A DNA stretch of 53,257 bases from Candidatus Vogelbacteria bacterium (GTDB lineage Bacteria; Patescibacteriota; Minisyncoccia; Phycocordibacterales; JACOZG01). The notes below the pieces were generated by a model, which was not told the origin of the DNA, did not search any database, and saw only the letters and a program-made list of their open reading frames with translations. A program made the position numbers and the translations under genes. Where the stretch lies: the NCBI GenBank assembly GCA_016181465.1, contig JACOZG010000021.1:1-53257 (forward strand). The letters are read 5' to 3'. Positions 8,961 to 44,291 of this stretch are shown piece by piece (position 1 is the stretch's first letter; every line of letters starts with the position of its first letter).

Positions 8961-9032
8961 TGCGGGGTAGAGCAGTGGTAGCTCGTCGGGCTCATAACCC
9001 GGAGGCCGTTGGTTCGAATCCAACCCCCGCTA
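8961..9032 (+). tRNA. tRNA-Met (CAU), initiator type
   Basis: TGCGGGG-TA-GAGCAGTGGTAGCTC..TCGGG-CTCATAA-CCCGG..GGTTCGAATCC..CCCCGCT-A. It shows a 1:72 mismatch (U:U), an A11:U24 pair, and three G:C pairs closing the anticodon stem. Confidence 0.85.
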
Positions 9033-9056: not shown

Positions 9057-9129
9057 GTCGGGGTAGCTCAGTTGGTAGAGCACGGGACTCATAAGCCCGC
9101 GGTCGTGGGTTCAAGCCCCACCCCCGACA
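9057..9129 (+). tRNA. tRNA with CAU anticodon, elongator type (Met, or Ile2 if lysidine-modified)
   Basis: GTCGGGG-TA-GCTCAGTTGGTAGAGC..CGGGA-CTCATAA-GCCCG..GGTTCAAGCCC..CCCCGAC-A. It has a C11:G24 pair and a paired 1:72. Confidence 0.85.
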
Positions 9130-41261: not shown

Positions 41262-41422
41262 TTTTCATTCAAGACAAATAGCCCCTCGACTCTCGCCTGC
41301 GGTGAGCGCAGTCGAACCGCTCGGGACATTCGCCTCGTTCGCACGACAAAAACTCGATCCCTTGGTTTTGGTCGAGTGGTTTACCATGAGCGAGTCCCGA
41401 GTTTATCGAGGGGCGAGTCGAA

Positions 41423-41801
41423 TGGAGATGCCGGGAATCGAACCCGGGTGCAAGGAGGAAACAAAGGTGAGTCTACCGATCTAGCCGATTTTGAATTTTG
41501 ACCGAGAACCGTCGAAAACGGCAAAATCGCTTCTCGGCGAGTCTCTTGAGTTTCGGTTACTTAGTGAGACGCTAAATTCCCTATCCCGAAGATTATGACA
41601 CCCGTTATCCCCTATCGGAAGTCAGGAAAACGGACGCCGGTTTAAGCGTAAGCGAAAACCGGAGCAAAAGCGCGGGCGAACCCGTCCTTTACTTTAGAGA
41701 ATAAGTTGGCACTTATTCGATGGCTCGTTAGATTAGCGAGTTACGAGCGCGCTCGACCGGCACACATTTTTTTAAACTCCTTGTCTAGGCCGATCATCCC
41801 C
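41423..41801 (-). ncRNA. ssrA: tmRNA (SsrA)
   Basis: The 5' end is GGGGATGATCGGCCTAGACAAGG and the 3' end is ..GGGTTCGATTCCCGGCATCTCCA. The acceptor stem has G3:U70. An internal tag frame GCC AAC TTA ..GCT TAC GCT TAA (41710-41642) ends ..FAYA*. It lies next to smpB. Confidence 0.9.
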
Positions 41802-41828: not shown

Positions 41829-42272
41829 TTAGCTTTTCAAAGACCTCGCCATTTCGCGTTCGGTATCGCGCCGTTTAATCGCTTCCCGTTTATCATACTT
41901 CTTTTTGCCTCGGGCCAAAGCGATTTCTACCTTGATTCGCCGCCCCTGACTATACACCCTGACCGGGATGATTGTCAATCGTTTTTCGTTGCCGGCCGCG
42001 GCTAGTTTGACAATCTCTTTTTTGGTCAGGAGTAGCCGCCGCGTTCGGCGGGAATCATAATCAGCCGGCGTATTGGCCGACTGATAAGGCGCGATGTCGG
42101 CATTGACGAGGTAAACCTCTTGACCGCGGACAATCACATAAGCGCCGGCGAGGTTGACCCGTCCGGCTTTGATTGACTTAACCTCCAGCCCGATCAATTC
42201 CAGACCGGCTTCGAATTTATCCAGCAGTTCGTAACGGAAACCGGCCTGACGATTGTCCGCAAAAATCAGCAT
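41829..42272 (-). CDS. smpB: SsrA-binding protein
   Basis: Matching segments are ..NRQAGFRYEL...FEAGLEL.G.EVKS...G...L..AY......E.YL....I.PY and the basic C-tail. The start is set at ATG 42272 (MLIFADNRQ..). Confidence 0.92.
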   Translation of the reverse strand: MLIFADNRQAGFRYELLDKFEAGLELIGLEVKSIKAGRVNLAGAYVIVRGQEVYLVNADIAPYQSANTPADYDSRRTRRLLLTKKEIVKLAAAGNEKRLTIIPVRVYSQGRRIKVEIALARGKKKYDKREAIKRRDTEREMARSLKS

Positions 42273-42330
42273 CCAGTTAATTCTAACACACTTCCTTTTT
42301 TGCCCAATTTCTGTATATTGATCAATAATT

Positions 42331-44229
42331 ATGGAATCGCCGCGTGGTAAAATCATCAACCAATTCAGCCGCCAGATCCTGGGGACGGTTTTTATCCTGA
42401 TGCTCCTCGTCAGTCTCTACGCTTTCTGGAGCGAAGAAGCGAACAAAACGTCGGAGATTTCGCTTTCGCAGTTGGCCGGCGAGATTAAGTCAGGCGCGGT
42501 CAAAGAAGTAACGGTGCAGGGCGACAGTTTAGAAATTAGCTACCAAGACGGGACGAACAGCCGATCACAGAAAGAAGTCGAAACATCGTTGTCCGAAACC
42601 CTGACTAATTACGGCGTTACCGCTGAAGAATTGAAGACCGTCAAACTCATGATTGAGAATCCCGGCGGCCTCGGCTTCTGGTTGCTCAATCTCCTACCCT
42701 TTGCCTTGCCGATTCTTCTCATCTTGTTCTTTGTCTGGATGATCTCGCGGCAAGTCCGGGGCGCCTCGATGCAGGCCTTTTCTTTCGGCCAATCCAAAGC
42801 CAGGATCATTGATCCCAATAACCAGCAGCAGAAAATCACTTTCAAGGATGTGGCCGGGGTCAAAGAAGCCAAGGAAGAACTGTTGGAGATCGTTGATTTC
42901 TTAAAAAATCCGAAAAAGTTTCTTGACATCGGGGCCAAAATCCCGAAAGGCGTGCTCTTGATGGGCGCGCCGGGGACGGGCAAAACTTTGTTGGCCCGAG
43001 CCGTGGCCGGCGAGGCCCAGGTGCCCTTCTTTTACCTCTCGGGTTCGGAATTCGTGGAAATGTTTGTCGGCGTCGGCGCCTCGCGCGTCCGCGATCTCTT
43101 CAAACTGGCGAAGAAGGCGGCGCCGTCAATCGTCTTCATTGACGAGATTGACGCCATCGGCCGGCACCGCGGTTCCGGGCTTGGCGGCGGCAACGACGAA
43201 CGGGAACAGACTCTGAACCAGATTTTGGTTGAGCTGGACGGTTTTGAACCGAATGAAAAATTAATCGTCATGGCGGCGACCAACCGGCCGGATGTGCTCG
43301 ATCCGGCCTTGCTCCGGCCCGGACGCTTTGATCGGCGAGTGGTGCTGGATAAGCCGGACATTAAGGACCGGGAAGAGATCCTGACGATTTACGCCAAGAA
43401 AAAACCCCTGGCCGAGGATGTCAATCTTCGCACCATCGCCGAACGGACCCCGGGCTTCTCCGGCGCCGATCTGGCCAATGTGATGAACGAGGCCGCGATT
43501 TTGGCGGCCCGCGAGAATCGTCAGCGCGTCAGCCAATACGACCTCATCCGGTCGGTGGAAAAGGTGATGCTGGGGCCCGAACGGCGAAGCCATATCCTCT
43601 CGGACAAAGAAAAGAAAATCACGGCTTACCACGAGATCGGCCACGCCCTTACGGCCTCGGTCCTGCCGCATTCTGACCCGGTGCATAAAGTCTCAATCAT
43701 TTCTCGCGGTCACGCCGCCGGCTACACCTTGAAGTTGCCGACCGAGGACCGGAAGCTTCAGTCGCGAAAAGAATTTTTGGACGATATCGCGGTTTCGCTG
43801 GCCGGCTACACGGCCGAGGAAATGATCTTCGGCGACATCACCACCGGCGCCGCGAGCGATATTGCCGTGGCTACAGCCCTCGCCCGCGATATGGTGACGA
43901 AGTACGGCATGAGCGACAAACTCGGTCCGGTGGCGCTTGACCTCGGCAGCCAGAAATTCTGGGGCGGTTACGGCACTTTGGCCGAGAAGTACTCATCCGA
44001 GGCCGTGTCAGCGGCGGTGGATCAAGAGGTAAGCCAAATAATGAACGAGGCTCGGGCGCGGGCCAAACAAATTTTGACTAACCAACGGGCGGCCCTTGAT
44101 GGTTTAGCCGCCGAACTGGTGCGTCTGGAAACGATCGAGCGCGAGGAGTTTGAAAAACTGCTGCTACTCCACGGCATCCAGCCGAAACTAAAGACCGAGG
44201 AGGCAAAGATCACGCCGCCGGGCATGTAG
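42331..44229 (+). CDS. ftsH: ATP-dependent zinc metalloprotease FtsH
   Basis: It has two N-terminal TM helices, AAA+ Walker A GAPGTGKT, Walker [10 protein letters not shown], an SRH segment and the zinc site HEIGHAL. Confidence 0.97.
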
Positions 44230-44291
44230 CTCAACGGCAGAGCAAGCGTCTTATACACGCTAGGTTCTTGGTTCAAATCCAAGCATGCCCA
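44220..44291 (+). tRNA. tRNA-Ile (anticodon UAU)
   Basis: GGGCATG-TA-GCTCAACGGCAGAGC-A-AGCGT-CTTATAC-ACGCT-AGGTT-CTTGG-TTCAAAT-CCAAG-CATGCCC-A. Loop positions 34-36 are TAT. The gene begins within the last codons of ftsH. Confidence 0.8.

Follow-up and report, generated by a model that had tools for sequence, protein, structure and literature searches.

In bacteria, TilS is regarded as essential and nearly universal, and it has been considered as an antibacterial target. A 2024 paper states that lysidine is found in almost all bacterial tRNA-Ile2 (PMC11938285). Other ways of reading AUA have been described. Bifidobacterium and Neorickettsia, which lack TilS, combine a tRNA-Ile(UAU) with an eukaryote-type IleRS (Taniguchi et al. 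2013, PMC3575796). In Mycoplasma mobile, a type-1 IleRS is adapted through a Trp-to-Arg865 change in its zinc-binding domain, and U34 of the tRNA was measured to be unmodified (PMC3575796). In the model of Taniguchi et al., coexistence of both AUA routes is an intermediate stage (PMC3575796). A UAU tRNA-Ile can also replace TilS in the laboratory, as in a suppressor of a Bacillus subtilis tilS deletion, where the tRNA is a mutant derived from tRNA-Ile1(GAU) (Fabret 2011; Koehrer 2014, PMC3919564).

Here we analyse a 53,257-nucleotide stretch of DNA (the window) from the genome of Candidatus Vogelbacteria, an ultra-small bacterium of the Patescibacteria (CPR), in which a tRNA-Ile(UAU) gene follows ftsH. 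The host assembly is 644 kb long in 48 contigs, with 51% GC and 91% completeness, and the closest named relatives of its FtsH are those of Patescibacteria/Paceibacteria MAGs (Nomurabacteria, Taylorbacteria, Kaiserbacteria and Paceibacterota). We consider it highly probable that this tRNA, charged by a type-2 IleRS, is the only AUA-reading tRNA of the cell and that TilS and tRNA-Ile2(CAU) have been lost.

From its gene content, the mechanism is predicted to be the known TilS-independent UAU route, in the Bifidobacterium/Neorickettsia subtype. As in those bacteria, there is no tilS, the UAU anticodon is encoded, and the IleRS is of type 2, with an ARD3/DUF5915 domain and without a zinc-binding domain. 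Unlike them, the host belongs to a phylum in which about 55% of the sampled species share the trait, with strict exclusion of TilS. A single UAU tRNA serving AUA without lysidine, in a reduced genome, recalls M. mobile, and the lack of xm5U machinery here fits the unmodified U34 measured there. However, since the IleRS lacks the zinc-binding domain, it has no equivalent of Arg865, and the M. mobile subtype does not apply. M. mobile moreover stands alone within its clade; here, the UAU trait is common to whole orders. In contrast to the B. subtilis suppressor, the gene is natural, ancient and conserved, and occupies the position that Ile2(CAU) has in relatives. With the canonical tRNA-Ile2(CAU)/TilS system, the locus has in common that AUA, and not AUG, is predicted to be read as isoleucine, and that the neighbourhood is that of TilS-type Patescibacteria, where tilS-ftsH has Ile2(CAU) nearby; it differs in having neither TilS nor an Ile2(CAU) tRNA, the anticodon being encoded directly.

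A tRNA-Ile(UAU) gene overlaps the end of ftsH

The genes around the 3' end of ftsH and upstream of it are as follows.

41420..41801, minus strand: tmRNA gene ssrA (Rfam RF00023, 107 bits; ARAGORN)
41829..42359, minus strand: smpB, the divergent neighbour upstream of ftsH (Pfam SmpB, 173 bits)
42331..44229, plus strand: ftsH, with AAA and Peptidase_M41 domains (ORF list, Pfam)
44220..44291, plus strand: tRNA-Ile, anticodon UAU, no encoded CCA (ARAGORN, Rfam, conservation in relatives)

ARAGORN called the segment 44220-44291 on the plus strand as a 72-nt tRNA-Ile(tat). Folding with the covariance model Rfam RF00005 gave a match from end to end (72.2 bits, E 6.5e-14) without any non-canonical pair being flagged, and this was the top tRNA score of the window. 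The stems (acceptor GGGCATG/CATGCCC, D stem GCTC/GAGC, anticodon stem AGCGT/ACGCT) and the loops (anticodon loop C-U-U-A-U-A-C, T loop TTCAAAT) are those of the regular cloverleaf with a UAU anticodon that a first-pass annotation had described from the letters, and its placing of the gene start within the last ftsH codons also holds, GGC ATG TAG falling in tRNA positions 1-10. The encoded 3' end lacks CCA. Orthologs with a UAU anticodon were found in nine of 11 relative loci, and about 30 of 80 FtsH loci have such a gene after ftsH. Across 28 sequences, compensatory changes are seen in 17 of the 21 stem pairs, and the CUUAUA loop does not vary; within the order, positions 30-40 are strongly conserved (GUCUUAUACAC). 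These results confirm 44220-44291 as a genuine tRNA-Ile(UAU) gene.

The TAG stop codon of ftsH, at 44227-44229, corresponds to tRNA positions 8-10, so that the two genes overlap by 10 nt. Since the Peptidase_M41 domain ends at residue 610 of 632 (Pfam), only the non-domain C-terminal tail of FtsH is involved. The overlap is shared with a single relative (G004), and ftsH of the other relatives stops 2-61 nt before the tRNA, which argues that a variable tail has probably run on recently. No promoter-like or terminator-like site was found within 520 bp upstream or 210 bp downstream of the tRNA gene, which weakly suggests that it is co-transcribed with ftsH.

Because the stop codon of ftsH falls within the tRNA, cleavage by RNase P at 44220 would yield an ftsH mRNA that has none. 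Two genes of non-stop rescue, smpB and ssrA, are located, divergently oriented, just upstream of ftsH; a functional link between a stop-less ftsH message and these neighbours is speculation.

No TilS match, and two CAU tRNAs of the methionine classes

Neither TIGR02432 nor PF01171 gave a match over cutoff in the 91% complete genome, although both exceeded their cutoffs in every one of ten bacterial control genomes. The single weak PP-loop match is a 355-aa MnmA. By the same search, TilS was not over cutoff in any of 41 genomes from the order (the host and 40 relatives), many of which are 100% complete. The site upstream of ftsH at which TilS-type relatives carry tilS is occupied by smpB in the window.

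The assembly holds 36 tRNAs, among them Ile-GAU and Ile-UAU. Only two have a CAU anticodon, and both lie in the window.

8961..9032, plus strand: initiator tRNA-fMet (CAU), with U1xU72, GGG/CCC and a GAGCAG D arm; clusters with initiator tRNAs from 10 other Patescibacteria
9057..9129, plus strand: elongator tRNA-Met (CAU), not tRNA-Ile2; belongs to the CAU class that all genomes have, whether TilS-type or not

These assignments use CAU classes defined from five complete TilS-type and five complete UAU-type Patescibacteria. Together with those of the window, the CAU tRNAs of the 10 genomes fall into three classes. Initiators have a GAGCAG D arm, an anticodon stem that ends next to the loop in two or three consecutive G-C pairs (GG or GGG), and mostly a mismatch at 1:72; the tRNA at 8961-9032 shows all three features, with U1xU72 and three such pairs (GGG/CCC). 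Elongator tRNA-Met is present in every genome and has A31 opposite a non-pairing base at position 39, a signature carried by 9057-9129 as A31/G39 in its anticodon stem CGGGA/GCCCG. The third class occurs in TilS-type genomes only and therefore presumably represents Ile2(CAU). Up to three CAU tRNAs were counted per TilS-type genome and up to two per UAU-type genome.

The first-pass annotation had pointed to a second, elongator-type CAU tRNA at 9057-9129, Met or Ile2, as the gene on which coexistence of the two AUA-decoding routes depends. The gene is present, and its class and A31/G39 place it with Met. With no TilS to act on it, and being of the elongator-Met class, this tRNA does not belong to a lysidine system. 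Since TilS is missing and both CAU tRNAs are accounted for as initiator and elongator Met, the lysidine and UAU routes appear not to coexist in this genome, and tRNA-Ile(UAU) is apparently the sole AUA decoder of the cell.

With 48 contigs and 91% completeness, the assembly leaves about 9% of the genome in which tilS and tRNA-Ile2(CAU) might lie, the UAU tRNA then being a redundant second AUA decoder, and some bacteria do carry both systems (PMC3575796). We judge this to be very unlikely. The syntenic tilS site upstream of ftsH is part of the assembly and is taken by smpB, TilS was over cutoff in no genome among 41 from the order although many are complete, complete UAU-type genomes have no more than two CAU tRNAs as against three in TilS-type genomes, and none of 401 genomes across the phylum has both systems.

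The CAU tRNAs show two further peculiarities. In the Patescibacteria compared, elongator tRNA-Met conserves A31 opposite a non-pairing G, A or C at position 39, and this mismatch at the base of the anticodon stem sets the class apart from both Ile2(CAU) and the initiator. The canonical mismatch of bacterial initiators is C1xA72; the initiator at 8961-9032 has U1xU72 instead, relatives have A1xA72 or A1xG72, and one genome (G025) has U1-A72, which would be a Watson-Crick pair.

AUA is in use and is predicted to mean isoleucine

ATA is a used codon in this genome: among crude ORFs it amounts to 6.2 per 1000 codons and 9.4% of isoleucine codons, and it is present in 363 of 539 ORFs. It is scarce in core genes (three codons in IleRS, one in FtsH), so the demand these place on tRNA-Ile(UAU) would be modest. 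Elsewhere ATA is concentrated in a few genes, with 28 codons in a 968-aa ORF (G000 C14:4992-7898), 24 in a PEP-utilising enzyme (C30:17306-20845), 22 in a 514-aa ORF (C2:36922-38466) and 13 in an 892-aa ORF (C25:5568-8246) whose N-terminus resembles that of the 968-aa one. This concentration, set against near avoidance in core genes, suggests that most of the demand for the tRNA comes from acquired AT-rich genes.

The rarity of ATA in core genes would also fit a UAU gene that is a non-functional relic, with AUA read in another way, either through tRNA-Ile(GAU) or through a CAU tRNA that an unknown enzyme modifies. Such a relic is hard to reconcile with the gene itself, which has the top tRNA score of the window and has been kept in several orders, with 17 of 21 stem pairs covarying and an invariant anticodon loop, or with the occurrence of ATA in two-thirds of the ORFs (363/539). 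Furthermore, G34 does not pair with A under standard wobble rules. We regard this explanation as highly improbable, and the tRNA as a probable functional AUA decoder.

The meaning of the codon was assessed in the PEP-utilising enzyme (1179 aa, 24 ATA codons) by comparison with 119 homologs. At ATA sites the homologs have I 45%, V 13% and L 12%, with an isoleucine majority at 18 of 23 sites, and methionine is not among the top six residues. At ATT/ATC sites the homologs have I 58%, with an isoleucine majority at 53 of 68 sites; at ATG sites they have M 47%, with a methionine majority at eight of 17. FtsH was dropped as a test in its own right because it contains one ATA codon only, at which homologs have I 35, L 26, F 15 and M 2. 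The profile of ATA sites thus resembles that of ATT/ATC sites and not that of ATG sites, which indicates that AUA is read as isoleucine. Reassignment of AUA, for instance to methionine as in many mitochondria, would make the UAU tRNA something other than an isoleucine tRNA; the match between ATA and ATT/ATC profiles, the low rank of methionine and the composition of the FtsH site all speak against it, and we give it practically no credence.

A type-2 IleRS and the wobble base of the tRNA

The IleRS gene lies outside the window (G000 contig C39:248-3784, locus L025) and encodes 1178 aa. Its C-terminus is a DUF5915/ARD3 domain (PF19302, 40.3 bits), NCBIfam places it with MupA/MupB-like enzymes, and a search for the zinc-binding domain gave no zf-FPG_IleRS match. 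Taken together, these features identify it as a predicted type-2, eukaryote/archaeal-like IleRS. We considered IleRS type as a discriminator between the UAU and TilS states and rejected it, since DUF5915-type IleRS is found in 389 of 401 genomes of the phylum, TilS-type and UAU-type alike. IleRS2 is thus best read as a permissive background and not as a marker of the switch, a point of difference from the Bifidobacterium and Neorickettsia case.

Although DUF5915 occurs in both types, its Pfam scores are higher in TilS-type genomes: the top 55 are all TilS-type, and the top 149 include 123 TilS-type as against 21 UAU-type. ARD3/DUF5915 is the IleRS domain that reads the wobble base. A same-genus pair, G370 (UAU) and G078 (TilS), has similar DUF5915 scores, so that the split may reflect phylogeny rather than co-adaptation.

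The enzyme has a further domain that sets this order apart from Bifidobacterium and Neorickettsia, a histidine-phosphatase domain (His_Phos_1, PF00300) that interrupts the synthetase body near its middle, at residues 514-678. Of 40 relatives in the order, 39 have the insertion as well, in an ORF of a size expected for IleRS (about 1100-1230 aa), and it goes unmentioned in a 2026 paper on IleRS architecture.

MnmE and MnmG were not found in the genome; MnmA is present. An xm5-type modification of U34 is therefore unlikely to be made, and by analogy with M. mobile it is plausible that U34 is unmodified. An unmodified U34 can in principle read G, so a safeguard against AUG is needed. Within the same overall mechanism, that safeguard could be a modification of U34 by an unrecognised enzyme, either to pseudouridine as in eukaryotic PsiAPsi or to something novel, with the modification, and not the ribosome or the tRNA body, restricting reading to AUA. 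The strong conservation of positions 30-40 in the order would fit a modifying enzyme. However, MnmE and MnmG are missing, MnmA normally requires U35, and no candidate enzyme was identified in this analysis. Modification was raised as a possibility for M. suis, but M. mobile manages with an unmodified U34 (PMC3575796), and we regard a modified U34 as possible but rather unlikely.

We propose that the tRNA, most likely transcribed with ftsH, would be freed by RNase P and receive its CCA post-transcriptionally. The type-2 IleRS would charge it with isoleucine. U34, probably without an xm5-type modification and possibly unmodified as in M. mobile, would pair with the third-position A of AUA, and misreading of AUG would be avoided. 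TilS and its substrate tRNA-Ile2(CAU) would have been lost, leaving the initiator and elongator Met as the remaining CAU tRNAs.

TilS and tRNA-Ile(UAU) are alternatives across Patescibacteria

We surveyed 401 Patescibacteria species genomes with a pattern consisting of the 3' strand of the D stem, followed by CTTATA and then the T arm. The pattern matched 216 genomes and its reversed control none; TilS was over cutoff in 147-148. ARAGORN found a UAU tRNA in six genomes in which neither had been detected. The final counts, which are descriptive because related genomes are not independent of one another, are 221 of 401 genomes with the UAU tRNA only, 147 with TilS only, none with both and 33 with neither detected. 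One genome (G205) that had seemed to carry both systems was rejected, as its match was not tRNA-like and disappeared once the T arm was included in the pattern.

Based on these genomes, the UAU route is the predicted majority state in the phylum, at about 55% of sampled species. The view that a UAU tRNA-Ile is confined to a minority of lineages, also taken in the first-pass annotation, thus stands for bacteria at large in the literature but fails within Patescibacteria. In the open-access literature we found no paper that links CPR, Patescibacteria or Parcubacteria to TilS or lysidine, or that gives the phylum-wide pattern. Over half of the species sampled manage without TilS, in a phylum that accounts for a large share of bacterial diversity, and the either/or split (221 versus 147, none with both) is a natural setting in which to study why TilS can be dispensed with. 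In annotation, CAU tRNAs in UAU-type genomes should not be called Ile2, and a missing tilS should not be taken as a sign of an incomplete genome.

The split is also seen at closer range. In family f42, 10 of 11 genomes are TilS-type; the sole exception, G370, has a UAU tRNA and neither TilS nor an Ile2(CAU) homolog.

A separate case is G196 (locus L037), in which a UAU tRNA occurs together with two TilS-like N-terminal fragments, both just below cutoff (86.8 and 62.7 bits) and located on the small contigs C120 and C105. The fragments may come from a tilS gene in decay, which would make G196 a rare intermediate, or they may be contamination.

Gene order and the origin of the UAU gene

None of the roughly 30 FtsH loci (of 80) in which tRNA-Ile(UAU) follows ftsH carries tilS. 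Conversely, tilS lies immediately upstream of ftsH in 11 of the 80 loci, none of which has a UAU tRNA. In two tilS-ftsH loci, L095 and L110, an Ile2-type CAU tRNA is found downstream of ftsH, in the place that tRNA-Ile(UAU) takes in UAU-type lineages. This shared position suggests that the UAU gene succeeded Ile2(CAU) in an ancestral tilS-ftsH-tRNA cluster, a succession read from gene position. The tRNA bodies do not discriminate between possible sources: with the anticodon masked, identity of the UAU tRNAs was 0.61 to Ile2, 0.61 to GAU and 0.58 to Met.

In G370, an in-situ C34U origin is not supported, since its UAU tRNA (C16:13766-13795, locus L149) differs along its whole length from the Ile2(CAU) of its genus-mate G078 (locus L147). 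Its anticodon arm, GCGUCUUAUACACGC, is nevertheless identical to that of the tRNA in the window, which would be compatible with transfer: this genome may have acquired the UAU tRNA gene horizontally, or the gene may be mis-binned.

A broader proposal, which we put forward tentatively and with some doubt, is that tilS-ftsH-tRNA-Ile2(CAU) and ftsH-tRNA-Ile(UAU) are strictly alternative states of one cluster. The switch would have occurred more than once, at least sometimes through a ready-made UAU tRNA and not through C34U, as in G370, and the intermediate with both systems would be very short-lived. If this is true, the absence of the intermediate from 401 species would mean either that the systems are mutually incompatible or that loss of TilS follows almost immediately.
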